DNA from: Candidatus Saccharimonadaceae bacterium
Lineage (GTDB): Bacteria; Eisenbacteria; RBG-16-71-46
Assembly: GCA_035494735.1 (NCBI GenBank)
Contig: DATJGS010000037.1
Span: 81,637 to 145,636, forward strand
DNA length: 64,000 nucleotides
Direction of reading: 5' to 3'
Part shown: positions 1,478 through 36,376 of the stretch, piece by piece
Layout: every line of letters begins with the position of its first letter
How positions within the stretch are numbered: the first letter of the stretch is position 1
Position numbers and translations under genes: made by a program
Notes under the pieces: generated by a model
What the model saw: only the letters and a program-made list of their open reading frames with translations
What the model was told of the DNA's origin: nothing
Databases searched by the model: none

Positions 1478-1596
1478 GAACGCCTCCTGCCCCCGGGACG
1501 ACGGCGCGGCGCTTCGCCGGCCATTCGCATGCGTTGGAACGGGCAATCTACACCGCGCGCCTCGTCGCGCGTACGGCTTTGTGCTTGAATGCGCGC

Positions 1597-2838
1597 GTGG
1601 ATCGTCGCGTCTTCCTCGCCCGCTTCGCAGCGCTCCTGGCCGCCCCGGCCGTGGCCGGCCGCGCGTTGGCCGCGGCGCGCGTCGATTCGCTCGGCGCCGC
1701 GCCCGACAGCATCTTGGGCGCGCCGAACCCCGAGGTCGCGCTGCTCGCCGTGGGCGGCGACACCACGCTCGGCTACAACCTCGAAGCCCACGTCGACGAG
1801 ACGCTGGAGCTGGGGATCTCGCGCGAATCGCTGTTCCCCCTGTACCTGGCGAACGTGCGCCCGATCCTCGAGTGGGCCGACGTGGCGATGGTGAACCTCG
1901 AGTGCCCGTTCACGACGCGCGGCGACGCGATGCAGAAGAACTTCAACTTCCGCGCGCGCCCCGAGCTGGTCGAGATCCTGAAAGCCGGCTCCATCGACGC
2001 GGTGACGTTGGCGAACAACCACCTCAAGGACTACGGCGACGACGGCGTTCGCGACACGATCGCCACCCTGGACGGCGCCGGCATCGCGCACTTCGGCGCG
2101 GGCACGAACCTGGCGAAGGCGCGCCGCCCGCTCATCGTCGAGCGGCGCGGCGTCAAGCTCGGGTTCCTCGGCTACTACTTCCAGGCCGCGCCCGACATGC
2201 TCGAGCCCGAGGCCGTGTACGCCACCAAGCACGACCCGGGCGTGGCCGGCTGCTACAAGGACGCCGATTGCATCGAGCGCATGGTGCGCGAGGACGTGAA
2301 GCGCCTCGTGCCCAAGGTCGACGCGGCGATTCCGTTCTTCCACTGGGGCAAGGAGGGTTCGACCGACGTCCGCGACTACCAGACGCACCTCGCGCACCTC
2401 TGCGTCGACCTCGGCTGCCGCGCCGTGCTCGGCGCGCACCCGCATCGCTTCCAGGGCATCGAGGTGTACCGCGGCGCGCCGATCTTCTATTCGCTCGGCA
2501 ATTTCCTGTTCGGAGGCAACAAGGATCCCAAGGACAAGCTGTCGGCGATCGTGCGCCTGCGCGTCACGAAGAGCGGCCCGATCGAGGCCGACGCCGTGCC
2601 CATCCAGATCACGCGCTGGCCGGACGCGCCGTTCCAGCCGTACGTGCTCGAGGGCCCGGAGAAGGACGCGGCGCTGATCCATTTCGCCGAATTGTCGCGC
2701 GGCTTCCCGGCCACGCTGCCGCAGCTCGCCACGTACATGCCGCCGGCGTTCGACGCGAGCTCGGGCGCGGCGGGGGGCTCCGCGGACTCACTGCGCGGCC
2801 ACGCGCCGGCCGACTCGGCGGGAGCGCCGCGCCGCTAG
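1597..2838 (+). CDS. CapA/PgsA-family metallophosphatase (poly-gamma-glutamate capsule synthesis-like), Tat-type signal peptide.
   Basis: CapA-like motifs (GDxxLG ... NNH ... GAH.H) and an RRVFLARFAALLAAPAVAG twin-arginine leader. Start placed at GTG 1597. Confidence 0.75.
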   Translation: MDRRVFLARFAALLAAPAVAGRALAAARVDSLGAAPDSILGAPNPEVALLAVGGDTTLGYNLEAHVDETLELGISRESLFPLYLANVRPILEWADVAMVNLECPFTTRGDAMQKNFNFRARPELVEILKAGSIDAVTLANNHLKDYGDDGVRDTIATLDGAGIAHFGAGTNLAKARRPLIVERRGVKLGFLGYYFQAAPDMLEPEAVYATKHDPGVAGCYKDADCIERMVREDVKRLVPKVDAAIPFFHWGKEGSTDVRDYQTHLAHLCVDLGCRAVLGAHPHRFQGIEVYRGAPIFYSLGNFLFGGNKDPKDKLSAIVRLRVTKSGPIEADAVPIQITRWPDAPFQPYVLEGPEKDAALIHFAELSRGFPATLPQLATYMPPAFDASSGAAGGSADSLRGHAPADSAGAPRR

Positions 2839-2935
2839 CCCGTTGCCCCTTGGCCGGGGCGGCGCGGCTCTCTACAATTGAGCGCGCTCGACCAACTCGC
2901 CGCACGCCACGTCGCTCCTCGTCCTGGACTCCGCC

Positions 2936-5533
2936 ATGCGCCCAAGTCGTGCCCTCCCTCTCGCCCTGCTCGTGGCCCTCGCCTGCCTCGCCGCCGATTC
3001 CGCGACCCGCGTGCGGCTGGCGCCGGCCGAGCGCGACGCGCACGAAGCCGAGGATCCGGGCGACTGGTTCTTCGCGCAGCGCGCGTTCCCGGGCGCGACC
3101 GTGAACCAGGCCGCGTTCGACGCGGCGCGCGGCCAGGCGCTGGCCGATCGCGCGCGGCAGGCGCTGTCGACGAGCGCCACGCCGCTGGTGTGGACGCAGG
3201 CCGGGCCGTACAACATCGGCGGCCGCGTCACCGCGCTCGCCGTGCTGAACGGCGGCGTCACGGCCTACCTGGGCGCGGCCGACGGCGGCGTGTTCAGGTC
3301 CACGAACTCGGGCGTCAACTGGACGCCGATCTTCGACAACGCGTTCGGCACGCCGTCGATCGGCGCCATCACCATCGATCCGACGAACGCGAACACGGTG
3401 TACGTCGGCACCGGTGAAGCGAACGCGTCGGTCGACTCGTACGACGGCAGCGGGATGTATCGCAGCGACGACGCAGGCGCGACCTGGAGCCCGCTCGGGC
3501 TCGCGACGGTCGGCCGCATCGCGCGCATCGCCGTCGACCCGGCGAACTCCAGCCGCATCTTCGTCGCCGCGATGGGCTCCCAGTTCTCGACGGGTTCCAA
3601 CCGCGGCCTGTACCGCAGCGAGAACGGCGGCGCGACGTGGAGCCGCGTGCTGTTCGTGAGCGACAGCACGGGCGCGGGCGACGTCGTCGTGAACCCCGTC
3701 CATCCGGAGACGCTGTTCTGCGCGACGTGGGAGCGCGTGCGCCACCAGAACTACCGGCGCGCGTTCGGCCCCGAATGCGGCATCTGGCGCAGCGCGGACC
3801 ACGGCGACACGTGGACGCTGCTGTCGAGCGGCCTGCCCGCGCCCAGCGACAACGTGGGGCGCATCGCGCTCGGCATCGCGGCGTCGCGCCCGTCCACGAT
3901 CTACGCGCAGATCGGCACCGGCGTCGCCGGCGGCTACAAGGGGCTCGGCCTGTACCGCAGCCTCGACGCCGGCCAGACCTGGGCGCGGCGCGACGGCGCG
4001 GGCACCACAAGCACGTTCAACAACGCGTTCGGCGGCTTCTGCTGGTACTTCGGCTCGATGGGCGTCGACCCGACGAACCCGGATCGCATCTTCTGCCTCG
4101 GCCAGTCGCTGCTGCGCTCGCTCGACGGCGGCGCCACGTACGCGACCGTCACCGGCGCGGCGCACGTCGACGAGCACGCGATCTGGATCGACCCCACGAA
4201 CGTGAACCGCGTGTTCCTGGGAAACGACGGCGGGTTCTTCTCGTCCACGAACGGCGGCAGCGTCTGGACCAAGTCCGTCGACCTGCCGATCTCCCAGTTC
4301 TACGCGTGCGACGTCGACGCGTCGAACCTGGCGCGGACCATGGGCGGCACGCAGGACAACAACTCCATCCAGACGTTCGGCTCGCCGACCGGCTGGACCG
4401 TGATGCTGGGCGGCGACGGCTTCTACGCGCTCGTCGACCCCACGAACCCGAATATCGTGTTCGCCGAGTCCCAGTACTGCAACGGCGGAGCCGGCCCGGC
4501 CAAGGCCACGGACGGCGGCGTGTTCTTCGGCACGCCCACCGGCTTCGCGCCCAGCGACCGCTACAACTGGTGCACGCCGATCGTGCTAAATCCTCTGAAC
4601 CACAACGTCGTGCTGACCGGCAGCCAGCGCGTGTACCGCAGCACCGACAACGGCGACAACTACTCGACCCTGGGCGGCGACCTGACCACGAATCCCGTCT
4701 CCCAGCTGGGCTTCGGCACGATCTCCACGATCGACGTCTCGCGGGCCGACACCAGCCTGTACTACGTCGGCACCGACGACGGCCGGGTGTGGCGCTCGCC
4801 GGACCGCGGCTTCTCGTGGGCCGAGATCACCGCCGGGCTGCCGCTGCGCTCGATCACGCGCGTCACGGCGGACCGCACAGACCCGAACGTCGTCTACGTG
4901 ACGCTGTCCGGCTTCGGCAGCGACGAGCACGCGCCGCACGTGTTCCGCAGCGCGGATCGGGGTACGAACTGGACCTCGATCGCCGGCAACCTGCCGGACG
5001 CGCCGGCCAACGATCTCGTGGTCGACACGCTCGACCCGAACACGCTGTACCTCGGCACCGACGTCGGGGTCTACGCGACGCGCAACCTCGGGGCCGGCTG
5101 GTTCCCGCTCGGGACAGGATTGCCCATCCAGGCGGTTTTCGATCTCGCGCTGCACGCCGGCACGCACACGCTGGTGGTCGGCACGCACGGTCGCTCGCTG
5201 TGGAAGCTGGACCTCGGCGGCCTGCCGCTCGCGGTTCCACCCGCGCCGTCCGCGGCGCGTCTCGCGCTGTCGTTCCCTTCGCCGAATCCGAGTCGCGCGA
5301 GCGCTCGCTTCACGCTCGAAGTGTCGCGTGCCATGTCCGTGGAGGTAGCGGTGTTCGACGCGTCGGGTCGGCGCGTGGCGACACTGTTCCGAGGCGCATG
5401 TGGAGCGGGCCAAATCACTCTCGCCTGGGACGGCCGCGACGCCGCGGGACGTCGCGCGAGCGCGGGCGCGTACTGGGTGCGCGCGGCGAGCGCCGAGGGT
5501 GTCGCGACGCGCTCGCTCGTCCGACTCGAGTGA
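2936..5533 (+). CDS. Secreted BNR/Asp-box repeat beta-propeller protein (sialidase/GH74/sortilin-like) with a T9SS-type C-terminal sorting domain.
   Basis: Signal peptide, about 10 SxDxGxTW Asp-box repeats, and a C-terminal FlgD-Ig/Por-secretion-tail pattern (PNP...D.SGRRV...G.Y). Confidence 0.85.
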   Translation: MRPSRALPLALLVALACLAADSATRVRLAPAERDAHEAEDPGDWFFAQRAFPGATVNQAAFDAARGQALADRARQALSTSATPLVWTQAGPYNIGGRVTALAVLNGGVTAYLGAADGGVFRSTNSGVNWTPIFDNAFGTPSIGAITIDPTNANTVYVGTGEANASVDSYDGSGMYRSDDAGATWSPLGLATVGRIARIAVDPANSSRIFVAAMGSQFSTGSNRGLYRSENGGATWSRVLFVSDSTGAGDVVVNPVHPETLFCATWERVRHQNYRRAFGPECGIWRSADHGDTWTLLSSGLPAPSDNVGRIALGIAASRPSTIYAQIGTGVAGGYKGLGLYRSLDAGQTWARRDGAGTTSTFNNAFGGFCWYFGSMGVDPTNPDRIFCLGQSLLRSLDGGATYATVTGAAHVDEHAIWIDPTNVNRVFLGNDGGFFSSTNGGSVWTKSVDLPISQFYACDVDASNLARTMGGTQDNNSIQTFGSPTGWTVMLGGDGFYALVDPTNPNIVFAESQYCNGGAGPAKATDGGVFFGTPTGFAPSDRYNWCTPIVLNPLNHNVVLTGSQRVYRSTDNGDNYSTLGGDLTTNPVSQLGFGTISTIDVSRADTSLYYVGTDDGRVWRSPDRGFSWAEITAGLPLRSITRVTADRTDPNVVYVTLSGFGSDEHAPHVFRSADRGTNWTSIAGNLPDAPANDLVVDTLDPNTLYLGTDVGVYATRNLGAGWFPLGTGLPIQAVFDLALHAGTHTLVVGTHGRSLWKLDLGGLPLAVPPAPSAARLALSFPSPNPSRASARFTLEVSRAMSVEVAVFDASGRRVATLFRGACGAGQITLAWDGRDAAGRRASAGAYWVRAASAEGVATRSLVRLE

Positions 5534-5758
5534 GATTTCGCGTCCCGCACGCCGAGAGCGATTTCACCCGCAATTGGCGCGGCCCGGAATATGCATCGCT
5601 TTCGACCGCTCCAAATCGGGTCCGAATGACGCTCACCGCGAAAAAGACCTTTGAAAATGCGGGCGCCCTTGCTATACCCGCTCCTGGCTAAGGCGTGTCG
5701 CGACTCCGATGCGCCCGCCCGAAGCGCTCATAGACCTTCATAGGGAGAGGAAGGAACC

Positions 5759-6040
5759 ATGGCGAAGATGATGACGAAGTCCCAGATTGCCGGCTACATC
5801 GCCAACAAGTTTGAGCTCACCAAGAAGCAGAGCGTCCAGATTCTCGAAGAGCTCGCGACGCTGGCCGCCAAGCAGGCCAGAAACGGCTTCGTGTTCCCGG
5901 GCGTTGGCAAGCTCGTGGTCGTGAAGCGCAAGGCGCGTATGGGCCGCAACCCGCAGACCGGCGAGGCCATCAAGATTCCGGCCAAGACCGTGCTGAAGTT
6001 CCGCATCGCGAAGGCGATGAAGGAGCTCGCGCTCAAGTAG
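5759..6040 (+). CDS. hup: HU/IHF-family nucleoid DNA-binding protein.
   Basis: 93 aa; GRNPQTGE..I.IPA..V.KF HU signature; AGGAAGGA SD. Confidence 0.92.
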   Translation: MAKMMTKSQIAGYIANKFELTKKQSVQILEELATLAAKQARNGFVFPGVGKLVVVKRKARMGRNPQTGEAIKIPAKTVLKFRIAKAMKELALK

Positions 6041-6057
6041 AGCGAACCCGATTTGCG

Positions 6058-6098
6058 GAACGGCCCGGCGCCCGAGCGTCGGGCCGTTCTTGTTTGTG
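6058..6098 (+). terminator. Rho-independent terminator downstream of the HU gene.
   Basis: 10-bp stem GAACGGCCCG/CGGGCCGTTC with a 12-nt loop, followed by TTGTTTGTG. Confidence 0.7.
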
Positions 6099-6134
6099 CG
6101 ACACCGCGAGGCAACGCGACCGCGGGCGCCGTCG

Positions 6135-6246
6135 CGCGGTGGAGGCAGGCGCGAAAAGACGGGTAGGGGCCCGTCGCCCCTTCCCCACCCCCCCACCTCC
6201 CCGGGGCTCCCGCCCTCCCCGACTTTTCGCACCTGCCTCCACCGCG
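6135..6246. repeat. Large imperfect inverted repeat (about 29-bp arms, 27/29 paired) enclosing a roughly 53-nt C-rich loop. The minus strand of the loop is G-run rich.
   Basis: Arm cgcggtggaggcaggcgcgaaaagacggg at 6135-6163 pairs with cccgacttttcgcacctgcctccaccgcg at 6218-6246. The loop contains ccccaccccccc and ccccggggc. Confidence 0.6.
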
Positions 6247-6301
6247 CTGCGTGGCTCGGTCGCGTTGCCTCACCCTAGACGCTCTGTCACGATGGCCTTG
6301 C

Positions 6302-7231
6302 ATGACTACTGGGATCGTCGTCGATTCGGTCACCAAGACCTACCGCGGTGGCGCGGTGCGGGCGCTCGACAGTGTTTCGTTGAACATCGCGCCGGGTGAG
6401 GTGTTCGGGATCATTGGGCCGAACGGCGCGGGCAAGACCACGTTGTTCGGGTGCCTGCTCGGGTTTCTCCGGCCCGATTCGGGGCGCGTCACCGTGGATG
6501 GCCATGCGGTCGACGATCTCGAGATCCGGCGCGTGACCGGCTACCTGCCGGAGCGCCTCGTGCTCGATCGCTGGATGCGCGGGCGCGAGTTCCTCGCGTA
6601 CCACCACGCGCTCGCCGGGCTGCACTCGGGGGATCGTGCGCGCGACGTCGAGCAGAGCCTGGCGCGCGTCGGACTCGAGCCCGAAGCGGGCGCGCGGCCG
6701 GTGCGCAAGTATTCGCGCGGCATGCTGCAGCGGCTCGGGCTCGCGCAGGCGCTGCTCGGTCACCCGCGCTGGGTGTTCCTCGACGAGCCGGCCTCGGGCG
6801 TCGATCCGGCGGGCGTCGTGCTGTTCCGCCGGCTGCTCGCCGACCTGAAGGGTCGCGGCGTCACCGTGCTGCTCAACTCGCACCAGCTCGACCAGGTCGA
6901 GCGCGTGTGCGACCGCGTCGCGTACGTCAGCAAAGGGCGGGTCGAGGCCATCGAAACGGTGAGCGCGGGCGCCGGCGAGTCGCGCGTGCTGCGCGTGCGC
7001 TGGGCGGCCGGCGGCGCGACGCCCACGCCCGAAGCGCTGCGCGCGCTCGCGGAGCGCGCCGGTGCCACGCTCGAGAGCGCGGGCGCGACCGAACTGCGCG
7101 TCGCCGTGACCGACGACGCCGGCGCCGCGCGCCTCCTGTCCGCGCTCGTCGCGTCCGGCCTGCCGGTGACCGAGGCGGCGCCCGAGGAAGGGCGCCTCGA
7201 GCGCCTGTTCCTGGAAGGCGGCGCGTCGTGA
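6302..7231 (+). CDS. ABC transporter ATP-binding protein.
   Basis: Walker A GPNGAGKTT, signature YSRGMLQRL, Walker B VFLDEP. Confidence 0.9.
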   Translation: MTTGIVVDSVTKTYRGGAVRALDSVSLNIAPGEVFGIIGPNGAGKTTLFGCLLGFLRPDSGRVTVDGHAVDDLEIRRVTGYLPERLVLDRWMRGREFLAYHHALAGLHSGDRARDVEQSLARVGLEPEAGARPVRKYSRGMLQRLGLAQALLGHPRWVFLDEPASGVDPAGVVLFRRLLADLKGRGVTVLLNSHQLDQVERVCDRVAYVSKGRVEAIETVSAGAGESRVLRVRWAAGGATPTPEALRALAERAGATLESAGATELRVAVTDDAGAARLLSALVASGLPVTEAAPEEGRLERLFLEGGAS

Positions 7232-7944
7232 TCCATTCGACGCTGATCCAGGCGCTGCTCCGCCAGCGCGCGGCCAGCCCGGTGCGCATGGCGCTGCTGC
7301 TGTTCATGTTCTTCGCGCCGATCCTGATCACCGCCAGCGCGCCCGGGCTCGGGCTCGGCCCGCTGGGCAACGGCTACGGCATCGTCATCGTGATCGCCGC
7401 CGGCATGATCGGGCAGGACGTTTCGTCCGGCGTGCTGCAGCTGCTGCTGGCGCGACCGATCCGCCGCGACACGTACGTGCTGAGCCGCTGGCTCGGCGCC
7501 GCGCTCGGCGGCTTCGGGTTGATCGCGGTGCAGGCCGGACTGTGCACGCTCGTGCTGTGGATGCGCGGCGCGCCGCCCGACACACGCGACCTCGCGCTGC
7601 TGCTCGGCGACAACCTGCTGCTCGCGCTCGGCCTGTGCGCCGTGCTCGCGCTGTGTTCGTCGCTGCTCGGCGGCCTCGGCGACCTGGCCATCCTGTTCCT
7701 GGCGACGCTCGCCGCGAAGCTCATGGAGGGCGCGAGCCAGCTCGCGCACTCGCCGATCCTCGGCCGCGTCGGCACGGAACTCGAGAACGTGTGCATCCCG
7801 CAGATCCACCTGTTCGAATTCATGAGCCCGTCCGGCCCGCCGTGGTTCGCGATCGTGTCGTACGTCTCCACGGTCGTGCTGTGCCTGGCGCTGGCCATCG
7901 TGGTCGTGAATCGCAAGGAGCTGTCGTATGCCGCCGCCGGATGA
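7228..7944 (+). CDS. ABC-2 type transporter permease.
   Basis: GTG start overlaps the upstream stop (GTGA); six predicted TM helices. Confidence 0.7.
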   Translation: MIHSTLIQALLRQRAASPVRMALLLFMFFAPILITASAPGLGLGPLGNGYGIVIVIAAGMIGQDVSSGVLQLLLARPIRRDTYVLSRWLGAALGGFGLIAVQAGLCTLVLWMRGAPPDTRDLALLLGDNLLLALGLCAVLALCSSLLGGLGDLAILFLATLAAKLMEGASQLAHSPILGRVGTELENVCIPQIHLFEFMSPSGPPWFAIVSYVSTVVLCLALAIVVVNRKELSYAAAG

Positions 7945-8521
7945 CGCTCGCGGGCAAGGCACGCGGCAGACGCCGACCGTGCTGCTCGCGCTCGCCGCGC
8001 TGCTGCTCGTGGCGCGCGTCGTCGTGGGCGTGATGGACGCGCGGCACCCGCGCGAGAAGGCCGACCTCGTCGCGTGGCAGCCGATCGCCGAGGCCGGCTC
8101 GCGCGCCGCGCAGACCGGGCGCCCGGTGCTCTACGAATTCAGCGCCGCCTGGTGCGGACCGTGCCAGGCCATGAAGCGCGAAGTGTTCGCCGACCCCGAC
8201 GCCGCGGCCGAGATCAGCCGTTCGTTCGTGCCGGTCCAGGTCGTGGATCGGCAGCGCGAGGACGGCCACAATCCGCCCGACGTCCAGGAGCTGGAAGAGC
8301 GCTATCACATCGACGGGTTTCCCATGCTCGTCGTCGTCGCCCCGGGCATCGAGCCGCAGACGCTGAACGGCTACCCGGGCGCCGACGAGACGCGGCGCTG
8401 GCTGCAGGGCGCGATGATGCGCGCGAGTGTGGGCGGAGCGCGGCTGCAGCCAGGATCTCCGCTCGGCGGCGACGGCGCGAACGGCGCGAACGCGCCCGAC
8501 ACGTTGCGCCGCCTGCGCTGA
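7928..8521 (+). CDS. Membrane-anchored thioredoxin-like protein.
   Basis: N-terminal TM helix and a WCGPC active site; overlaps the permease by 17 nt. Confidence 0.8.
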   Translation: MPPPDDARGQGTRQTPTVLLALAALLLVARVVVGVMDARHPREKADLVAWQPIAEAGSRAAQTGRPVLYEFSAAWCGPCQAMKREVFADPDAAAEISRSFVPVQVVDRQREDGHNPPDVQELEERYHIDGFPMLVVVAPGIEPQTLNGYPGADETRRWLQGAMMRASVGGARLQPGSPLGGDGANGANAPDTLRRLR

Positions 8522-15213: not shown

Positions 15214-15242
15214 TTGCGAACTGCACGTATGTGCAGTACCGT
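15214..15242 (+). promoter_or_regulatory. Candidate sigma70-type promoter whose 17-nt spacer is filled by a perfect palindrome CTGCAC-GTAT-GTGCAG.
   Basis: -35 TTGCGA, -10 TACCGT, 17-nt spacer. The palindrome matches TGCNC-N4-GNGCA, which I recall as the Fibrobacter-type LexA operator. Confidence 0.5.
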
Positions 15243-15260
15243 GCCTCTCGCCAGGTCCCA

Positions 15261-15512
15261 ATGCGACTCGAAACCCTCGATGAAGCCGTCACCGTTCGCG
15301 CCGACTTCCAGGGCGGCGCCGTCACCCCGCTGGCTTTTCGCCGGCGGGGCCGCGAGCACCGGATCGTGCGGGTGAATGCCCGTTGGATCGACAGGGTGCC
15401 GCGGCATCCTCACTTCTATTTCTCGGTGACGGACGAGAGCGGGGACGTCTATCAGCTGCAGCTGCAGAGCGGCGACCTGGTGTGGTGGCTGGACTCGGTG
15501 ACGCTCGAATGA
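15261..15512 (+). CDS. Small hypothetical protein (83 aa), translationally coupled to the downstream Y-family polymerase.
   Basis: Protein-like composition (W, Y, F, D, E) and an ATGA stop/start overlap with the next gene. Confidence 0.5.
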   Translation: MRLETLDEAVTVRADFQGGAVTPLAFRRRGREHRIVRVNARWIDRVPRHPHFYFSVTDESGDVYQLQLQSGDLVWWLDSVTLE

Positions 15513-16987
15513 CGGGCGTCCCCTCCCTCACCGCGGCGCCGGGTGGAGCGCAACGTGCGCCTCACCCCTCTGCGACGCACAGGACGGCACCCGTCGAAGC
15601 AGAGCCGGGCGCCGCGGTGAAGGACGAAAACTCCGAGAGCGGTGCTGCGACCGACGCCGGTATCGCGGGGATCACCGGACCCGTCGGCGCAGCCCGCTCC
15701 GGAGCTGATGTTCCGGGCCGCCACGTCGGAAGCCCAGCCGCGCCGTCTCTGGCCGAAGCCGCGCCCGCCGCCGAGGCCGCGCGCGAAACCCTCGTGCTGC
15801 ACGTCGACATCGACGCGTTCTTCGCTTCGATCGAGCAGCAGCGCGACCCGCGCCTGGCCGGGCGGCCGGTCATCGTCGGCGCCGGCGTCATCGCGTCGTG
15901 CTCGTACGAGGCGCGTGCGTTCGGCTTGAAGGCCGGCATGCCGCTGTCCGAGGCCAGGCGCCTGTGCCCGAAGGCCGTCATCGTGGACGGCCACGCCCAG
16001 GTCTATCGCTGTTTCGCCGAGCGCATCTTCGAGCGCTGCCGCCAGATCGCGCCCGCGGTCGAGACGTACCTCGACGAGGCGTACTGCGACCTCTCCGGCA
16101 CGGAGCGCCTGCACGGCGACCCGCTCGCCGCCGTGGCCGCGCTCAAGCGCGACATCCGCGAGTCGACCGGCCTCGGCGTGACGTGCGGGCTCGGGCCGAA
16201 TCGCATGCTCGCGAAACTGATCGGCAAGACCGTGAAGCCCGACGGCCTCGCGCGCATCGCGGCCGTGGACGCCGAGGACTTCCTGACGGCGCGCCCGATC
16301 GAGCAGCTGGCCGGCGTCGGCCACGCGCACGCGCGCACGTTGCGCTCGATGAACCTGCACACCATCGGCGACCTGCGCGCGCTGCCGGTCGCCGCGCTGG
16401 AAGCGCTGTTCGGCGCGCCCGGACGGCAGCTCTTCCAGCGCTGCCGCGGTTTCGACACCATCGCGGTCAGCGAGCGCGAGGTGCCGGTCTCGATCTCGCG
16501 CGAGACCTCGTTCCACCGCGACACCGCCGAGCGCACGGAGATCGAAGGCATGCTCGAATACCTGGCCTCGCGCGCGTGCCGCGCGGCGCGCGACCTGGGG
16601 CTGCGCGCCCGCACCGTGGCGCTGCGCCTCCGCTACTCGGACGGCGAATGCCTCGAGCGCGCGCGTTCGCTCGGCATGCCGAGCGACGCCGATCCGGCCG
16701 TGGTCGACCTGGCGCGCGCGCTGCTGCAGCGCCTGTTCACGCGGCGCGTCGCGCTGCACGCGGTCGGGATGACGCTGTCCAGCTTCACGCGCACCGGCGT
16801 CGAGCAGGGCTCGCTGTTCGACGAGCCCGAAGCCGGCCGCCAGGCCGCGCTGTACCGCGCGTTCGACGGCGTGCGCGAGGCGTACGGCCACGGCGTGCTG
16901 GTCTCGGGACGCGCGCTGCACCTGAAAGGGCGGCTCGAAGAGGATCGCCATGGCTTCGTGCTGCGCACGCCGTCGCTGACCCGTTAG
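15509..16987 (+). CDS. dinB: Y-family DNA polymerase, DinB/Pol IV-like, catalytic carboxylates present.
   Basis: LHVDIDAFFASIEQ and YLDEAYCDL motifs. The first 95 codons or so are A/G/P-rich with lower GC3, so the true start may be GTG 15794. Confidence 0.85.
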   Translation: MTGVPSLTAAPGGAQRAPHPSATHRTAPVEAEPGAAVKDENSESGAATDAGIAGITGPVGAARSGADVPGRHVGSPAAPSLAEAAPAAEAARETLVLHVDIDAFFASIEQQRDPRLAGRPVIVGAGVIASCSYEARAFGLKAGMPLSEARRLCPKAVIVDGHAQVYRCFAERIFERCRQIAPAVETYLDEAYCDLSGTERLHGDPLAAVAALKRDIRESTGLGVTCGLGPNRMLAKLIGKTVKPDGLARIAAVDAEDFLTARPIEQLAGVGHAHARTLRSMNLHTIGDLRALPVAALEALFGAPGRQLFQRCRGFDTIAVSEREVPVSISRETSFHRDTAERTEIEGMLEYLASRACRAARDLGLRARTVALRLRYSDGECLERARSLGMPSDADPAVVDLARALLQRLFTRRVALHAVGMTLSSFTRTGVEQGSLFDEPEAGRQAALYRAFDGVREAYGHGVLVSGRALHLKGRLEEDRHGFVLRTPSLTR

Positions 16988-16997
16988 TCCACCCACC

Positions 16998-17023
16998 CCG
17001 CGCGCGCACTCGAGCGCGCGCGG
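16998..17023 (+). other. GC hairpin just after the dinB stop.
   Basis: 9-bp stem CCGCGCGCG/CGCGCGCGG with an 8-nt loop; no T-tract. Confidence 0.4.
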
Positions 17024-17042
17024 CAACGTCCCGGAGGATTCC

Positions 17043-17405
17043 ATGCCCGATCCCACGCTGCTCGGACTGCGCACCGTCGTCTACCGCACGCCCGACCTCG
17101 CGCGCGGCAAGGAGTGGTACGGCTCCCTGCTCGGCGTCGCGCCGTACTTCGACCAGCCGTTCTACGTCGGCTTCAACGTCGGCGGCTTCGAGCTGGGACT
17201 GCTGCCCGACGACGACGGCATGGCGGTCACGTATTGGGGCGTCGCCAAGATGTCGGCGGCGTGGCCGCGGCTGCTGGAACTCGGCGCGACCCCGGTCACG
17301 GCGCCCCAGGACGTGGGCGACGGCATCCTCGTGGCCAGCGCGCGCGACCCGTTCGGGAACCTGATCGGGCTCATCGAGAACCCGCACTACCCGAACACGG
17401 CGTAG
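17043..17405 (+). CDS. VOC/glyoxalase-bleomycin resistance family protein.
   Basis: 120 aa with the typical VOC-fold sequence pattern. Confidence 0.7.
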   Translation: MPDPTLLGLRTVVYRTPDLARGKEWYGSLLGVAPYFDQPFYVGFNVGGFELGLLPDDDGMAVTYWGVAKMSAAWPRLLELGATPVTAPQDVGDGILVASARDPFGNLIGLIENPHYPNTA

Positions 17406-17451
17406 CACGGCGCTCAAGGAGCGGGGGGCGACGTGCCGATACCACGGCATC

Positions 17452-18201
17452 ATGGTGTCTCCCGTCCGCAGGCCCCAACCGCCTCCACCGCCCGATCCGC
17501 TGCTGGTGCGGCTGTTCACGCAGCCGCTGTCCAGCCAGCAGGTCGAACGCCGTGCGCGCCAGACGCTGCGCCCGGCGGTGCGCGTGCTGCTCGTGATGGT
17601 GCCGGTGGCGCTGCTCGCCGGGCTCGGCTACGCCGCGTTCGACCTGTGGTCGCAGCTGCCGCCCACGCTCGTGCCGCGCCATCGCCCGGAAGCCCTGTGC
17701 TTCGCGCTGGCGGCGGCCGATCCGGTGACCGGCGATCATTTCCAGCCGCCCATGCACATCGAGCCGAGCGCGGCGCTGATGCGCTCGCGTTTCACGCCGA
17801 GCACGCCGGCCGGCGCGGCGCTGCGCGAGGTCATGCACCTCGACGAGAGCATGGTGCTGAGCGAGGCGTCGCGTCACGTCGGCGACTTCGACGTGTCCGT
17901 GCTGTGGCTGTACCTGCCGCCGGGCGCCGGCCCGGGCGACGGCTCGGACGACGCGCGCCACTGGCTCGTGCTGTGCTGGATGGAGGGCGGCGATCTCGCG
18001 GTGTGCAACTTCCGCTTCGCCGGCGAAGGCCGTCAGCTCGACGCCGACGAGCACCAGTGGGGCCAGCGCCTCGTCAATCGCCTGCTCGTGCCCGCGAACT
18101 TCGAAGCCGGCGTGCTCCCGACCGTGCGCCTGCGCATGCCGCGCGGCACGACCATGCCGGCGTTCGGCCCGCCCGCGGCGCAGTCGATCGCCGCGCAGTA
18201 A
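17452..18201 (+). CDS. Hypothetical membrane-anchored protein.
   Basis: One TM helix and a non-repetitive composition, unlike the overlapping ORFs. Confidence 0.4.
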   Translation: MVSPVRRPQPPPPPDPLLVRLFTQPLSSQQVERRARQTLRPAVRVLLVMVPVALLAGLGYAAFDLWSQLPPTLVPRHRPEALCFALAAADPVTGDHFQPPMHIEPSAALMRSRFTPSTPAGAALREVMHLDESMVLSEASRHVGDFDVSVLWLYLPPGAGPGDGSDDARHWLVLCWMEGGDLAVCNFRFAGEGRQLDADEHQWGQRLVNRLLVPANFEAGVLPTVRLRMPRGTTMPAFGPPAAQSIAAQ

Positions 18202-18245
18202 CCGATCGCGACGCGCCCGCCGGCCACCGCGAGCCCTATCGCGCG

Positions 18246-18728
18246 CTACCGGCTCGCGCCGACCTTCGCCCCGTCCGGACGGTCCTTGAGGCAGATCAAC
18301 GTCTGCGTGCCGAACGCGCAGCGCGACGCTTCGCCCGCCTTCAGCACCTCGACCTCGAGCATGCACACGGTGAGCGTGCGCCCCGAGCGCACGACGCGCC
18401 CGGTCGCGATCAGTCGCTCGCCGTCGGCCGGCGCCAGCAGGTGCATGCGGTACTCGACGCTCAGCACGGACGACTCTTTCGGCATGAGCGTGTAGCCCGC
18501 GTAGCCGCCGGCGCTGTCCGCGATCGTGCCGACGATGCCGGCGTGGAAGTAACCGTGCTGTTGCGTCAGGTCGTCGCGGAACGGCAGCTCGATCGTGCAC
18601 AGCCCGGGCTCGACGCGCGTCAGCTCGGCGCCGATCAGCGTCATGACGCGCTGGCGCACGAAGCTGTCGCGCACGCGGCGCGCGAAGTCGGGATCGCGGG
18701 GTTCGAGCGAGGGCATGGCCGCGTGCAT
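18246..18728 (-). CDS. PaaI/hotdog-fold thioesterase.
   Basis: Start taken at MHAAMPSLE; hotdog-fold pattern GYFHAGIVGTIADSAGG. Confidence 0.75.
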   Translation of the reverse strand: MHAAMPSLEPRDPDFARRVRDSFVRQRVMTLIGAELTRVEPGLCTIELPFRDDLTQQHGYFHAGIVGTIADSAGGYAGYTLMPKESSVLSVEYRMHLLAPADGERLIATGRVVRSGRTLTVCMLEVEVLKAGEASRCAFGTQTLICLKDRPDGAKVGASR

Positions 18729-18823
18729 GCTAGCACCGGCGCGGCGCGCGGCGCGCGAGTCCGGCGCGGCGTCTGCGCGTGGTGCGGCGACGGCGCGGGC
18801 GCGCGGTTCGCCGCGGGCGTCCG

Positions 18824-21800
18824 ATGACGCACACGCTCGCTCCCGCGTTCGTGCCGCTGCGCGTGCGCTCGCACGGCTCGTTGCTCGAGGGCACCGCCTC
18901 ACCCGAGCAGCTCGTCCGGACCGCGCTCGAGCGCGGCGCGCACGCGCTCGCGCTGACCGACCGCAACAACCTCTACCTCGCGATCCGCTTCTGGCAGGCG
19001 GCGCACGCCGAGGGCCTCGTGCCGCTGCCCGGCGCCGAGCTGGTGACGGCCGACGCGGCGGCCTTGCTGCTGCCGCTCGACCGCCGCGGCTGGGCGCGGC
19101 TGTGCGCGCTGCTCACCGCGCGGCATCTGGACCCGGCGTTCGATCTGATCGCGGCGCTCGGCGAAGGCGCGGCCGGGCTCCACGTGATCGTCGAGACGCC
19201 GGCGCTCGCGGCTTCGCTGCTGGCGGCCGGCGTCCCGGCGGCGCGCGCGACGGGCGCGGGAGCCTCCGGCGGGCTGTGGCTCGGCGTGCGCGGGCTTTCT
19301 TTCGAGCGCCCGCGCCTGGCCGAGCGGCTCGACGCGGCGCGCGCGCTCGGCGTGCCGGCGGTCGCGACCGGCGATTGCGTGATGCTGAATCCGCTCGACC
19401 ACGACGCGCACGCCATCGCCATGACCGCGGCGCGCGGCGAGCTGCTCGAGCGCATGCCGCCCGGCGCGTTCGCGACGCGCGACGCGTGGCTCGCGTCCCC
19501 CGCGGAGTGGACGCGCCGCGTGCGCGCGCTCTGCACGGGCGCCGGGCGGCCCGAGGCCGCGGCCGTGCTGCTCGCGCACAACGTCGAGCTGGCGGCGCGC
19601 TGCCGGCTCGAGCTGGAGCTGGGCACGCCGATCTTCCCGCGGCATCCCGAAGTGCAGGGCGCCGAGGGCCTGGCGCGCCTCCAGCGCCTGTGCGACGACG
19701 GCGTGCGCTGGCGGTATGGCGGGGGGCGGGCGACGGCGGGCGCGCACGGGCCGGCGGCGTACGCGGCGCCGGCGCCCCCCGCGTCGCCCGGCGCGCGCGC
19801 CACGACCGTCCGCGCCGCGGGCGCGCGCCTCGCGGAAGAGCTGTCGATGATCGCGCGCATGGGCTTCACCGATTACTTCCTGCTCGTCGCCGAGATCGTC
19901 GGCTTCGCGCGCGCGCGCGGCATCCCGACCGTGGGCCGCGGCTCGGGCGCAGGCTCGATCGTGGCGTACGTGCTCGGCATCACGAACGTCGACCCGCTGC
20001 GCTACAACCTGTACTTCGAACGCTTCCTCAATCCGTCGCGGCGCGACTGCCCGGATCTCGACATCGATCTGTGCTGGAAGCGCCGCGACGAAGTGATCGC
20101 GCACGTGTACGACGCGTACGGGCACGATCGCGTCGCCATGATCTCGACGCACGCCACGCTGGGCGCGCGCTCGGCGTTCCGCGAGACCGCGAAGGCGCTC
20201 GGCGTGCCGAACGCGCGCGTGAACGTGCTGGCGAAGCGCGTGCCGCGCGATCTCGAGGCGCCGTACGCGCCGAAGCTCGCCGCGTTCGCGGGCGGGCGCG
20301 ACGTGGATTGGCGCGAGCCGGTGCTGGCGCGCGCGCTGGCGCTGGCCGAGAAGCTGTCGGGCGCGCCGCGGCACCTGTCCGTGCACGCGGGCGGACTCGT
20401 GATCGCGGACCGGCCGCTCACCCACTACGTGCCGCTCGAGCGTGCGGCCAAGAACGTGGTCGTGACGCAGTTCGAGATGCGCGCGATCGAGGCGATCGGC
20501 CTGGTCAAGATGGACCTGCTCGGCAACCGCGCGCTGACCGAGATCGGCGACTGCGCGAGCCTCGTCACGCGGCGCGGCGGTCCGGTGATCGACGTCGACG
20601 CGATCCCCGACGACGACCCCGCGACCGCGGCGCGCGTCGGCGCGGGCGCGACGCTGAACTGCTTCCAGCTCGAGTCTCCGGCCATGCGCCACCTGCTGCG
20701 CATGATCGCGGCGCGCAACCTCGACGACACGATCGCCGCGGTCGCGCTCGTGCGCCCCGGGCCCGCCGGCTCACCGGGCGGCGAAGGGCGCGATCGCAAC
20801 ACGAAGGAGACGTTCTGCCGCCGCCAGCGCGGCCTCGAGCCCTCCGTGTTCGCGCACCCGCGCCTCGAGCCCGTGTTGCGCGAGACGCACGGGCTGATGC
20901 TGTACGAAGAAGACGTCATGCGCGTCGCCGCCGCGCTCACGCCGCTGACGCTGGCCGAGGGCGACGACCTGCGCCGCGCCATCGCCCACGCGCGCGACGA
21001 CGAGGAGTTCCGCGCGCTCGAGCGCGGCTTCGTCACGCAGGCCCGGCGCGAAGGCGTCGACGATGCGAGCGCCCACGCCGTGTGGCGCGAGCTGACGCGC
21101 TTCGCCGCGTACGCGTTCTGCCGCGCGCACGCCGCCGGCTACGGGCGCCTCGGCTGGCAGGCCGCGTACCTGAAGACGCACTTCCCCGCCGAATACGCGG
21201 TGTCGATCCTCAACCATCACGCCGGCATGTATCCGACGTGGGTGCACGTCGAGGACCTGCGCCGCCAGGGCGCGTGTTTCCTGCCGCCGTGCGCGGCGCG
21301 CTCGACGTGGGACTCGGCGTACGAAGCGGGCGCCGTACGCGTCGGGCTCGGGCGCGTGCTCGGGCTGTCGGAGGCGACGGGCGCGCGCATCGCCGGCGAG
21401 CGCGCGGCGCGGCCGTTCGCCAGCCTCGCCGACTTCGCGGACCGCGCGCGGCCCAGCTCCGACGAACTCGAGACGCTGATCCGCGCGGGCGCGCTCGACT
21501 TCGCGGGGCGCTCGCGGCCCGCGCTGTTGCTGGAAGCGCGCGTGGCCGCAGGGCGCGGCGGCGCGGCCGGAGGCGCGCGGGCGCTGGTACGCGCGCCGGC
21601 GCTGGCCGCGAACGACGGCACACCCGTGCTGCCGACGGCGGTCGCCACGGTGCTGACGCCCGAGCTGCCCGAGTTCTCGCTCGAACAGCGCGTGCGCGGC
21701 GAGCTGGAGGCGCTCGGCCTATGGTTCAGCGCGCATCCGCTCGACGTGATGCTGCCGCCGGGTGCGCGCGACGGCACGGTGCGCGCGGCGGCGTTGCCTA

Positions 21801-22105
21801 GGCACGCCGGGCGCCGCGTCGCGGTCGTCGGCATGCCGTGCGCGCAGCGCGGCGTCGAGACGCGCAGCGGCGACATGATGCTGTTCCTCACCGTCGCCGA
21901 CGAGAGCGGGCTCGTCGAATGCGCGCTGTTCCCCGACACGTATCGCGCGTGCGCCGCGGCGACGCGCGGCGAGATCGTGCGCGTGGAGGGTCGCGTCGAC
22001 GAAACGCTGGATTCCGTGACGCTGGGCGCGGAGCGCGTGGAAATGCTGTCCGCGTCGCGCGACACGCCGCACGGCCGCCAGGGACGCGGCCAACATCACC
22101 ATTGA
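18824..22105 (+). CDS. dnaE2: Error-prone DNA polymerase III alpha-type subunit.
   Basis: About 1093 aa; PHP domain, polymerase core and OB fold; shorter than DnaE1 and lacking its C-terminal region. Confidence 0.85.
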   Translation: MTHTLAPAFVPLRVRSHGSLLEGTASPEQLVRTALERGAHALALTDRNNLYLAIRFWQAAHAEGLVPLPGAELVTADAAALLLPLDRRGWARLCALLTARHLDPAFDLIAALGEGAAGLHVIVETPALAASLLAAGVPAARATGAGASGGLWLGVRGLSFERPRLAERLDAARALGVPAVATGDCVMLNPLDHDAHAIAMTAARGELLERMPPGAFATRDAWLASPAEWTRRVRALCTGAGRPEAAAVLLAHNVELAARCRLELELGTPIFPRHPEVQGAEGLARLQRLCDDGVRWRYGGGRATAGAHGPAAYAAPAPPASPGARATTVRAAGARLAEELSMIARMGFTDYFLLVAEIVGFARARGIPTVGRGSGAGSIVAYVLGITNVDPLRYNLYFERFLNPSRRDCPDLDIDLCWKRRDEVIAHVYDAYGHDRVAMISTHATLGARSAFRETAKALGVPNARVNVLAKRVPRDLEAPYAPKLAAFAGGRDVDWREPVLARALALAEKLSGAPRHLSVHAGGLVIADRPLTHYVPLERAAKNVVVTQFEMRAIEAIGLVKMDLLGNRALTEIGDCASLVTRRGGPVIDVDAIPDDDPATAARVGAGATLNCFQLESPAMRHLLRMIAARNLDDTIAAVALVRPGPAGSPGGEGRDRNTKETFCRRQRGLEPSVFAHPRLEPVLRETHGLMLYEEDVMRVAAALTPLTLAEGDDLRRAIAHARDDEEFRALERGFVTQARREGVDDASAHAVWRELTRFAAYAFCRAHAAGYGRLGWQAAYLKTHFPAEYAVSILNHHAGMYPTWVHVEDLRRQGACFLPPCAARSTWDSAYEAGAVRVGLGRVLGLSEATGARIAGERAARPFASLADFADRARPSSDELETLIRAGALDFAGRSRPALLLEARVAAGRGGAAGGARALVRAPALAANDGTPVLPTAVATVLTPELPEFSLEQRVRGELEALGLWFSAHPLDVMLPPGARDGTVRAAALPRHAGRRVAVVGMPCAQRGVETRSGDMMLFLTVADESGLVECALFPDTYRACAAATRGEIVRVEGRVDETLDSVTLGAERVEMLSASRDTPHGRQGRGQHHH

Positions 22106-32430: not shown

Positions 32431-33156
32431 TCAGCCGCCGGGGTTTTCGATGGCCTGCCGGAGCCGCTCGCGCGACGGGATGACGAAGCGTCCTTCGCCG
32501 GTCACGAGCAATCCCTCGCGCCCCCAGCGCGACAACACGCGAATCGCGGATTCGACGGTCGTGCCCACCAAGTCGGCCACTTCCTGGCGCGTCAGCGTGA
32601 GCGGGATCTCGACGCCCGCGGGGCCCTCGCGGCCCATGCGCTCGGCCAGCGTGAGGAACAGCTGCGCGATGCGCGTGTCCACGCGCTGGCCGCGCATGTC
32701 CTCGAGCTTGCGCGTCAGCGACACGACGAGCTTCGTGAGTTCGCGAATGATGGCGCGCGCGAACTCCGGATGACGGTCCAGCAGCTCGAAGTAGTCGCGG
32801 CGCGGCAGCACGACCAGCGACACGGGCTCGAGACACACGGCGCTCGCCGGGTACGGCATGTAGTTGTACACCGCGATCGCACCGACCGGCTCGCCCTCGC
32901 CGAACAGCTCGAGGATCACGTCGCCGGCGTCGGCGTGGCGCACGATCTTCACGCGCCCGCGCACGATGACGGTGAGCTGCTCGGCCGGGTCCCCGGCGCG
33001 CCACAGGAAATCGCCGCGCGCGTAGTCGCGGAGGCTCGCGAGACTCGCGATGCGTCCCTGATCGTCGGCCGTCAGCCCGCGGAACATCGGGATGGAGCGG
33101 ACCGCGGCCAGGACCCGTTCGGATCGAGCCTCGGACGTCGCGCGCGGTTCGCTCAT
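32431..33156 (-). CDS. Crp/Fnr-family transcriptional regulator.
   Basis: cNMP-binding-like fold plus a C-terminal HTH. Confidence 0.85.
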   Translation of the reverse strand: MSEPRATSEARSERVLAAVRSIPMFRGLTADDQGRIASLASLRDYARGDFLWRAGDPAEQLTVIVRGRVKIVRHADAGDVILELFGEGEPVGAIAVYNYMPYPASAVCLEPVSLVVLPRRDYFELLDRHPEFARAIIRELTKLVVSLTRKLEDMRGQRVDTRIAQLFLTLAERMGREGPAGVEIPLTLTRQEVADLVGTTVESAIRVLSRWGREGLLVTGEGRFVIPSRERLRQAIENPGG

Positions 33157-33170
33157 ATGATGCGGATCAT
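33157..33170. promoter_or_regulatory. Crp/Fnr-type palindrome ATGATGCGGATCAT.
   Basis: TGAT-N4-ATCA core resembles the TTGAT-N4-ATCAA FNR/Dnr consensus; sits right next to the regulator's start codon. Confidence 0.45.
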
Positions 33171-33255
33171 AGTCCAGTCGGGCCGCGTGCTCCCACCCCG
33201 CTCGACGGCAACGATCTAGGCCGGAATTCCCGACCCCGTGAATCCACGACGCGCG

Positions 33256-33269
33256 TGATGCCGATCATG
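33256..33269. promoter_or_regulatory. Second Crp/Fnr-type palindrome GTGATGCCGATCAT.
   Basis: Centred about 72 bp upstream of the hemerythrin ATG, consistent with class II (-41.5) activation. Confidence 0.5.
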
Positions 33270-33333
33270 CCGCGCGCGGCGCGAACGCACGATCCTCCTG
33301 ATGGACGCGGTACCGACTTTGGAGGAGCGGACG

Positions 33334-33903
33334 ATGCCCAATACGGTGTTCGACAATCTGCGCGACGACCACCTGCGCGTGCTCGGCGACATCTCGGCCG
33401 TGGAACGCGCCCTCGAGCCCGCGAGCGAAGGGCGGCGCGACGCGCGCGGCGGCCGGGCGGTCCGAGCCAAGGCGATTCGGCCGTCGGCGACGTGGGAACC
33501 GCTGCGCCGCCTCGTCGCGTTGCTCGAGCGCCAGTTCGAGACGCACATGGCGGCGGAGGACAAGGTGCTGTTCCCGTCGCTCGAGCGGGCGCTGCCCGAG
33601 ACGAGCGGTGCGCTCCGTGAGCTCGAGGACGAGCACCGCGAACTGCGCGGCATGCTCGCCTCGGTCGCCGGCCTGCTCCAGCGCCGCGCGTCGCAGGCCC
33701 GCGACGAACAACTCGTCGTGCAGGGCCGCGATCTCGTGGACCTGCTGCGCATTCATATTCGCAAGGAAGAAGTCGTCGTGTTCCGCGTGGCCGAGCGACT
33801 GCTCAGCCCCGCGGAGCTGATGGGCGTCGCGCGCCGTCGGACCGGAAACGCGATGACCGAACTCGGCTCCGGTCGCATCCCCTCGAGAGGATCGAACTCA
33901 TGA
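33334..33903 (+). CDS. Hemerythrin-like (HHE cation-binding) domain protein.
   Basis: Four His plus Glu/Asp in H...E spacing; GGAGGAG SD; ATGA overlap with the cytochrome c gene. Confidence 0.7.
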   Translation: MPNTVFDNLRDDHLRVLGDISAVERALEPASEGRRDARGGRAVRAKAIRPSATWEPLRRLVALLERQFETHMAAEDKVLFPSLERALPETSGALRELEDEHRELRGMLASVAGLLQRRASQARDEQLVVQGRDLVDLLRIHIRKEEVVVFRVAERLLSPAELMGVARRRTGNAMTELGSGRIPSRGSNS

Positions 33904-34391
33904 AGACGACTCGACTCGTGACGCTCGCCCTGGCCCTCGCGGCTGTGGCCGCGGTCGCGGGCTGCGGCGGCAAGACGGCGGATTCGGGCACCACCACGGG
34001 CACGACGAACGTGTCGGCCTCGGGCGCGGCCGGCGGCGACGCTCTGCCCGCCGGGCTCGACGAAGGCCCGCGCGCCGCGACGACGCCCATCGACGAGAGC
34101 AAGGTCGAAGCCGGCGAGAAGCTGTTCCAGACGCGCGGCTGTTCGGCCTGCCACGGATTCGGTAAGCGCATCTCCTGCCCCGATCTCGATGGCGTGACGT
34201 CGCGCCGCACCGCGAAGTGGATCGAGACGCAGATCCTGCACCCCGACGTCATGACCAAGCAGGACCCGACCGCTCGCCAGTTGTTCGCGCAGTACGCGCT
34301 GCAGATGCCCAAGCAGGGACTGACGCCGGCGGAGGCCGCCGCCGTGCTCGAGTTCCTGAAGCACAAGAACCACGAATCGGCCGAGAAGTAA
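33900..34391 (+). CDS. Lipoprotein c-type cytochrome.
   Basis: LAGC lipobox and a CSACHG heme-binding motif. Confidence 0.85.
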   Translation: MKTTRLVTLALALAAVAAVAGCGGKTADSGTTTGTTNVSASGAAGGDALPAGLDEGPRAATTPIDESKVEAGEKLFQTRGCSACHGFGKRISCPDLDGVTSRRTAKWIETQILHPDVMTKQDPTARQLFAQYALQMPKQGLTPAEAAAVLEFLKHKNHESAEK

Positions 34392-36324: not shown

Positions 36325-36337
36325 TTCCCGCACGTCG

Positions 36338-36362: not shown

Positions 36363-36376
36363 GACGGGAGGCAGTC

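Follow-up and report, generated by a model that had tools for sequence, protein, structure and literature searches.

Mutasomes fuel mutagenesis in response to damage and, among pathogens, resistance to drugs. In addition to the canonical LexA-regulated imuA-imuB-dnaE2 cassettes of Caulobacter, Mycobacterium, Pseudomonas, and Myxococcus, ImuA-less variants have been described in which a Y-family polymerase (PolY), active or inactive, is coupled to a standalone ImuB-C and/or DnaE2, with RecA proposed as the substitute for ImuA (Timinskas and Venclovas, Nucleic Acids Research [NAR] 2019; PMC6511836). One such variant, DnaE2B-PolY-[ImuB-C]-RecA, is a computationally predicted mutasome reported only in Actinobacteria, with members in Tessaracoccus lapidicaptus, Janibacter, Kineococcus, and Nocardioides (NAR 2026; PMC12926913). 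In AlphaFold models, the ImuB-C barrel touches the DnaE2 PHP domain, and actinobacterial systems with these three components gave confident tetramer models (PMC12926913). Published variants also include PolY-ImuB-C-RecA systems and DnaE2B-ImuB-C dimers (PMC6511836, PMC12926913). Here we analyzed a locus within a 64-kb stretch of contig DATJGS010000037.1 (hereafter the window; 64,000 nucleotides) that probably encodes a LexA-repressed, damage-inducible translesion synthesis module of the DnaE2B-PolY-[ImuB-C]-RecA type with a “split ImuB.” Judged from its sequence, the locus appears to be a known but computationally predicted mutasome type in a new phylum, Candidatus Eisenbacteria, and we place it in the published type because of its standalone ImuB-C gene and its operator.

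Organization of the locus and comparison with described mutasomes

The G+C content of the window is approximately 72%, raw lists of open reading frames (ORFs) were mostly noise, and genes were called from third-position GC content (GC3), which backed every gene call in the locus. The predicted features are as follows.

15214..15242, plus strand: predicted promoter with an embedded LexA-type operator, read from the sequence
15261..15512, plus strand: predicted standalone ImuB-C (Pfam DUF6504), 83 amino acids, all-beta; from GC3, homologues, and hhalign
15509..16987, plus strand: Y-family polymerase PolY, DinB/PolY-core-like; Pfam IMS, IMS_HHH_1, and IMS_C
18824..22105 (alternative GTG start at 18779), plus strand: DnaE2-type C-family polymerase; Pfam PHP, NTPase, finger, HhH, and OB domains
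17043..17405, plus strand: VOC/glyoxalase-family protein, a variable passenger in the operon; Pfam Glyoxalase
17452..18201, plus strand: hypothetical 249-amino-acid protein with one predicted transmembrane helix, a variable passenger
18246..18728, minus strand: hotdog-fold thioesterase, an insertion; Pfam 4HBT, TIGR00369, and a minus-strand GC3 signal
ends near 15000, minus strand: alpha/beta hydrolase, the upstream neighbor of the locus

Like DnaE2B-PolY-[ImuB-C]-RecA systems, the locus encodes ImuB-C (DUF6504) as a protein of its own, a PolY-core-type polymerase that appears to be active and carries a RecA-NT-like tail, and a DnaE2 whose PHP domain is inactive; the neighborhood contains neither imuA nor a dead ImuB within the window. 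It differs from the published type in phylum (Candidatus Eisenbacteria rather than Actinobacteria) and in gene order, which is ImuB-C, PolY, DnaE2 here and ImuB-C, DnaE2, PolY in Tessaracoccus, as judged from consecutive accessions. Furthermore, the window ImuB-C is shorter than the Tessaracoccus-type protein and lacks its WW-containing insert, the stop codon of ImuB-C overlaps the PolY start, PolY has a variable N-terminal linker, and the DnaE2 N terminus is nearer that of the gbDinB2-type DnaE2B associated with inactive PolY.

With canonical cassettes, the locus shares predicted SOS-box control, an ImuB-C barrel, a Y-family protein with clamp-type and RecA-NT-type motifs, and an error-prone-type DnaE2 with a dead PHP domain. 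In contrast to these cassettes, it has no ImuA within the window, its Y-family protein is intact and DinB-like, and ImuB-C is a separate, upstream-encoded polypeptide instead of a C-terminal fusion. Of the canonical set, we found the DnaE2 features, and neither imuA nor a dead, fused ImuB. A small ImuB-C gene directly before an active DinB-like polymerase, together with LexA control (predicted here), is also found in the Geobacter-type lexA-imuB-C-polY operon (GSU0042-like; Aravind et al. 2013, PMC3765255; GeoPolY-like group, PMC6511836), with the Geobacter protein compared by its description. Unlike that operon, the locus includes no lexA, and it has a linked DnaE2 that the Geobacter type lacks. 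The closest available DnaE2 sequences belong to SOS-linked DnaE2B-iPolY-RecA systems (gbDinB2-like; Treponema caldarium; a Desulfosarcina ovata plasmid, where the locus L006 reads lexA-DUF72-iPolY-dnaE), but those systems have an inactive PolY and no ImuB-C.

LexA, RecA, ImuA, and ImuB queries gave no tblastn match in the window at an E value of ≤0.1, and family scans gave no match to the ImuA family for any neighboring ORF. These results bear out the initial annotation of this DNA, which had reported no imuA. Its companion claim of no imuB held in part: a dead Y-family ImuB is absent from the window, whereas the 83-amino-acid gene at 15261 to 15512 supplies the ImuB-C module separately.

The small ORF encodes a free-standing ImuB-C

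We found 208 homologues of the 83-amino-acid ORF of approximately 84 amino acids at 73 to 92% identity, and most of those with a named source came from Candidatus Eisenbacteria metagenome-assembled genomes (MAGs). An exhaustive profile search with the small-ORF family returned 364 cluster representatives at an E value of ≤0.001, and the 150 matches listed from that search were all short proteins (29 to 135 amino acids). The ImuB-C superfamily is described as all-beta with a novel barrel and a conserved C-terminal Trp and as encoded upstream of DinB-like genes (PMC3765255, PMC12926913). The small ORF fits this description in fold, Trp, and gene position: its AlphaFold2 model contained five beta strands (predicted local distance difference test score [pLDDT] of 79), and W75 near its C terminus was invariant across 107 diverse members. 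A Foldseek search of the PDB with this model found no significant fold match, and tblastn of the small protein against plasmids found no match.

The strongest link to known proteins came from the standalone ImuB-C sequences printed in Supplementary data file 4 of PMC12926913. An hhalign comparison of the small-ORF family with ten of these published proteins gave a probability of 96.5% and an E value of 9.8e-10 over 80 columns that cover the whole small protein, and the small-ORF family profile ranked all three tested published ImuB-C proteins above 900 shuffled decoys. Pfam DUF6504 matched the small ORF at 19 bits and its close homologues at 25 to 26 bits (family range, 19 to 26 bits), which is weak against the cut-off of 24.2. 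When seven of the ten published proteins were scanned against Pfam, five matched DUF6504 at an E value of <0.01, comprising three proteins of DnaE2B-PolY-ImuBC-RecA systems at 52 to 74 bits, above the cut-off, and two of DnaE2B-ImuBC dimers at 17 to 21 bits; the two DnaE2X-type ImuB-C proteins had no match. Burkholderia ImuB was likewise not matched by DUF6504. On these sequence comparisons, DUF6504 appears to be at least the actinobacterial branch of standalone ImuB-C, with the small ORF a predicted member of that family.

We also weighed whether a frameshift joins ImuB-C to PolY, but at 72% GC chance alone is expected to produce long open frames, which leaves this fusion unsupported, and we dropped it.

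PolY is an apparently intact DinB-like polymerase with a RecA-NT-like tail

The initial annotation had proposed that the Y-family protein keeps its D-x-D and D-E residues, and alignment to solved Pol IV structures confirmed this. The PolY segment HVDIDAFFASIE aligned with the catalytic D-x-D and FF steric gate of these structures, YLDEAYCDLS aligned with their catalytic D-E, and the motif HxDIDAFFAxxE was present in all 56 orthologues inspected. PolY is thus apparently catalytically intact. Its bit scores were 199 to Caulobacter DinB, 191 to a mycobacterial DinB3-like protein, and 169 to Tessaracoccus PolY, compared with 21 (E value of 0.54) to Burkholderia ImuB, and by sequence we class it as DinB/PolY-core-like and not ImuB-like. 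All 10 NCBIfam Pol IV/UmuC models scored PolY below their curated cut-offs (best, 278 bits versus 371). As for a housekeeping DinB/Pol IV, the equivalog score was not reached, and the gene overlaps that of ImuB-C and is conserved together with it.

The start codon of PolY is uncertain; the likeliest is the ATG at 15509, which overlaps the stop codon of the small ORF (ATGA). The polymerase core begins near 15785 and is preceded by a low-complexity N-terminal linker of approximately 92 amino acids. The C terminus carries QGSLF, a beta-clamp-type motif, followed by the stretch DEPEAGRQAALYRAFDGVREAYGHGVL, which is RecA-NT-like in alignment with published RecA-binding PolYs. The tail SLFDEPEAGRQAALYRAFDGVREAYGHGVL aligned with the RecA-NT tails of four published PolYs, in which D and G were invariant. 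Beyond the RecA-NT-like motif, a further conserved tail, HLKGRLEEDRHGFVLRTPSLT[RK] (16910 to 16984), ends in RTPSLT[RK] and is kept in orthologues, but is missing from the published PolYs aligned with it. This extra tail could be a docking site for ImuB-C.

The C-family polymerase has accessory-type features

The C-family polymerase at 18824 to 22105 has accessory-type features, so the initial annotation was right to place a DnaE2 in this neighborhood. PDLDIDL and GLVKMDLLG aligned with the catalytic Asp residues of Taq Pol III alpha, and all three aspartates are kept. The metal ligands of the PHP domain, the proofreading site, are degenerate, with PLRVRSH and TDRNN in place of His ligands, and in alignment with Taq and E. 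coli Pol III alpha, the protein ends approximately 35 to 43 residues past the OB domain, without a tau-binding C-terminal domain. NCBIfam scores were 674 bits for the DnaE1 model (cut-off, 1002) and 557 bits for the DnaE2 model (cut-off, 939). As a replicative DnaE1, the protein therefore falls short of the equivalog score and is missing the tau-binding domain. Its sequence shows the features expected of an accessory, error-prone DnaE2 according to PMC12926913.

The three-gene order is conserved across Candidatus Eisenbacteria

A scan for related loci at one genome per species, made from an alignment of close-relative ImuB-C sequences, found 69 loci (numbered here with an L prefix, as are other contigs), nearly all labelled Candidatus Eisenbacteria. 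Among 51 loci that extend 2 kb or more beyond the small ORF, 50 have PolY downstream on the same strand. The order ImuB-C, PolY, DnaE2 was present in 25 of the 27 species-level loci whose downstream flank reached 6 kb or more. One of the two exceptions is L033, in which an insertion displaces DnaE2 past the fetched DNA. The other is L075:7961-9378 (MFD04716.bin.1.114), which keeps the box and ImuB-C followed by quinone-oxidoreductase-like and efflux genes. Median identity across loci was 78% for ImuB-C, 75% for PolY, and 63% for DnaE2. Conservation is highest in ImuB-C, in keeping with a role as the central adaptor.

The VOC protein, the membrane protein, and the divergent hotdog thioesterase that the initial annotation had reported between the two polymerases were all recovered by Pfam, TIGR00369, transmembrane prediction, and GC3; Pfam and NCBIfam scans gave no match for the 249-amino-acid protein. 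Between PolY and DnaE2, the VOC gene occurs in 17 related loci and the gene for the 249-amino-acid protein in 12, and the hotdog gene precedes dnaE2 only in the window, L010, L052, and L055. Because the genes between PolY and DnaE2 vary, these three are passengers and not core parts of the system.

In 30 of 57 loci, a start codon in the PolY frame overlaps or abuts the ImuB-C stop codon (TGATG or ATGA) and is followed by a low-complexity linker of variable length. This arrangement suggests that translation of ImuB-C and PolY is coupled.

Distant ImuB-C and PolY pairs with the same operator were found in L110, L122, L154, L167, and L187, at 30 to 53% and 31 to 59% identity, respectively. L110 also carries DnaE2 (44% identity), and no DnaE2 was found in the DNA available for the other four.

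In some Eisenbacteria, ImuB-C and PolY are split by an inserted TcmP-like gene, which encodes a three-Cys-motif partner protein (TIGR04474, 111 bits; L014, L016, L021 [two copies], L040, L041, L048, L067, and L094; e.g., L094:12071-12871). A LexA-type box of its own precedes the TcmP-like gene in L094, L081, L129, L175, and L190.

A LexA-type operator precedes the small ORF

Upstream of the small ORF, a 20-bp palindrome at 15219 to 15238 reads AACTGCAC-GTAT-GTGCAGTA and has the form TACTG-N10-CAGTA, which we take to be that of the E. coli SOS box. It lies between a -35 element (TTGCGA, 15214 to 15219) and a -10 element (TACCGT, 15237 to 15242) spaced 17 nucleotides apart, and it is the sole perfect CTGCAC-N4-GTGCAG site in the window. 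Position 15221, from which the initial annotation had started its feature, falls inside this palindrome and is not a gene start. The operator consensus in related loci is TACTGCAC-N4-GTGCAGTA, with conserved arms and a 4-nucleotide spacer and flanks that drift (approximately 65 loci), and there too it is flanked by the -35 and -10 elements. Each related locus has one TGCAC-N4-GTGCA core, upstream of the small ORF, save where insertions split the genes. In those cases we observed a second operator copy, located before PolY in L026 and L033 and before DnaE2 in L053.

Scanning metagenome contigs for the 20-mer TACTGCACANNNGTGCAGTA gave 120 loci, about a third of which were this operon. In 11 metagenome contigs, possibly of a lineage other than Eisenbacteria, the identical 20-mer lies 20 to 140 nucleotides upstream of lexA, the first gene of a lexA-PolY operon (L085, L086, L090, L109, L119, L127, L149, L166, L174, L181, and L195), and the three of these lexA genes that we checked all scored above the cut-off of the LexA equivalog TIGR00498. 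Autoregulation, of which a site upstream of lexA is the hallmark, identifies such a site as a LexA operator. Because the same 20-mer precedes these lexA genes, we infer that the palindrome is probably a LexA box and that the locus is probably under SOS control.

The 20-mer also precedes an ImuA-like gene followed by dnaE2 in L084 and L182, and Rv2578c-family radical SAM genes in L091, L100, L106, and L150. A search with the ImuA-like protein of L182 returned 14 metagenome proteins only. The contigs with the 20-mer before the lexA-PolY, ImuA-like/dnaE2, and radical SAM gene sets span 49 to 72% GC, and this distribution points to a LexA box type common to several lineages. Other copies of the 20-mer lie near CobN-like cobaltochelatase genes (L082, L118, L161, L171, and L178) and TauD-like dioxygenase genes (L112 and L147), identified by eye from N-terminal sequences on contigs that look unrelated. 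These copies may have arisen by chance or may serve a different regulator.

Evaluation of the proposed assignment and its alternatives

Several results weigh against assigning the locus to the DnaE2B-PolY-[ImuB-C]-RecA type. An hmmsearch linking the small protein to the proteobacterial ImuB C terminus gave no match, hhalign against the same region gave a plausible but non-significant alignment (P = 0.043), and a reverse ImuB-C profile showed only a weak excess of real over shuffled sequences. It is the standalone branch of the superfamily that carries the sequence-based assignment of the small ORF to ImuB-C. The Pfam model for RecA-NT, DUF4113, was not detected in the PolY tail. In N-terminal BLAST comparisons, DnaE2 was nearer to the DnaE2B proteins of inactive-PolY systems (Desulfosarcina DnaE, 180 bits, with 37% identity over the N-terminal 400 amino acids; Treponema DnaE2B, 133 bits) than to the partners of actinobacterial PolY/ImuB-C (actinobacterial DnaE2B, 65 to 96 bits), with Burkholderia DnaE2A at 102 bits. 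L075 has no PolY or DnaE2 within 8 kb of ImuB-C. Finally, the opposite-strand hotdog gene cuts dnaE2 off from the operator-controlled promoter in the window, and the 95-bp gap upstream of dnaE2 contains no LexA box or near-variant. None of the four loci with the hotdog gene has a LexA box before dnaE2, so that dnaE2 of this sub-lineage appears to be no longer under SOS control.

The last of these observations, made in the window, L010, L052, and L055 alike, would also be expected if two separate systems lay side by side without forming a three-way complex. ImuB-C and PolY, with or without RecA, would then form a self-sufficient SOS polymerase like the Geobacter-type lexA-imuB-C-polY, and DnaE2 would act by itself or with ImuB-C as its only partner, as in the Arthrobacter-type DnaE2B-ImuB-C pair. 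The ImuB-C and PolY pairs without detectable DnaE2 in four distant contigs with the same operator (L122, L154, L167, and L187) favor this arrangement, as do the published PolY-ImuB-C-RecA and DnaE2B-ImuB-C dimer variants and the argument that an active PolY makes a second polymerase logically unneeded (PMC6511836). We nonetheless consider it unlikely, since DnaE2 adjoins PolY in 25 of 27 Eisenbacteria species loci despite turnover of the genes between them, the split-off DnaE2 of L053 has acquired its own operator copy, and actinobacterial systems of the same components yield confident tetramer models (PMC12926913).

The initial annotation had left a choice between a non-canonical mutasome and an independent dinB placed beside dnaE2. 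The second option amounts to a chance neighborhood of a housekeeping dinB and a functionally unlinked dnaE2, and it could draw on the grouping of PolY with DinB/PolY-core sequences and on the three unrelated genes, one of them on the opposite strand, that separate the polymerases in the window. We regard it as extremely improbable: the gene order on one strand is conserved over dozens of species with variable intervening genes, a synteny that chance would hardly produce, the two polymerases share a LexA-type operator, and PolY has a start/stop overlap with ImuB-C, falls below the cut-offs of all NCBIfam Pol IV models, and carries a RecA-NT-like C-terminal tail typical of multisubunit PolYs. 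The non-canonical mutasome, in turn, gains support from the 25 of 27 linkage and the shared operator, but as first described it was incomplete, having overlooked the ImuB-C gene and the operator. It is also very improbable that the DnaE-like gene encodes the replicative Pol III alpha (DnaE1). Its best NCBIfam match is indeed the DnaE1 model, ahead of DnaE2, and its polymerase active site is intact, but both scores are far under their cut-offs, the tau-binding domain is missing, the PHP metal ligands are degenerate, and, by eye, the corresponding region of the Taq alignment has no QxxLF-type clamp motif. Moreover, the gene lies in an SOS-box operon with a translesion synthesis polymerase in most relatives, has diverged faster than its partners (median identity, 63%), and encodes an N terminus closest to published DnaE2B proteins.

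Proposed mechanism and implications

For a DnaE2B-PolY-[ImuB-C]-RecA module, a mechanism can be drawn from the published AlphaFold models of actinobacterial counterparts and, by analogy, from mycobacterial ImuA'-ImuB-DnaE2 work. DNA damage would lead to RecA-stimulated cleavage of LexA and derepression of the operon. The ImuB-C barrel would then form a bridge between PolY and the DnaE2 PHP domain, and PolY would anchor this complex on the sliding clamp and on RecA, standing in for ImuA. Lesions would be bypassed by one or both of the active polymerases, with mutations as the price. The hotdog insertion in this genome would uncouple dnaE2 from the SOS promoter.

A bolder proposal, which we offer tentatively and hold to be rather doubtful, is that Eisenbacteria independently built a mutasome with two active polymerases by combining a DnaE2 from a dead-PolY lineage (the gbDinB2-associated DnaE2B) with an active DinB-like PolY and a free ImuB-C adaptor, kept in fixed proportion via translational coupling. 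If true, the module would pair an inserter with an extender, in analogy to eukaryotic Rev1-Pol zeta, and would have arisen apart from the actinobacterial version.

ImuA-less split-ImuB variants are known from computational surveys of complete genomes only, and the one that combines ImuB-C and DnaE2 with an active PolY had been considered restricted to Actinobacteria. The predicted module in Candidatus Eisenbacteria would widen this distribution, as its component set forms a conserved unit with a predicted LexA box across the sampled genomes of an uncultivated phylum. The related loci supply approximately 60 natural sequence variants for coevolution and modeling work, and the probable SOS box of the lineage (TACTGCAC-N4-GTGCAGTA) could be used to map its SOS regulon.

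Other features of the window

Rfam and tRNA scans of the window gave no matches. A nitrous-oxide reductase cluster occupies 34411 to 39359 and consists of a nosZ-like gene with nos_propeller (34411 to 36324), nosD (36985 to 38451), and an ABC ATPase gene (38439 to 39359). The cluster is immediately preceded, at 32431 to 34391, by genes for a Crp-family regulator, a hemerythrin, and a cytochrome c. Window positions 122 to 8521, compared with L004/L012, show synteny to a MAG that bears the label “Candidatus Udaeobacter sp.” (DATJEP010000095.1), with aspartokinase, PGA_cap, BNR/sortilin, HU, ABC transporter, and thioredoxin-like genes in common. This MAG also has the Eisenbacteria-type locus, and its label may be a binning or taxonomy error.

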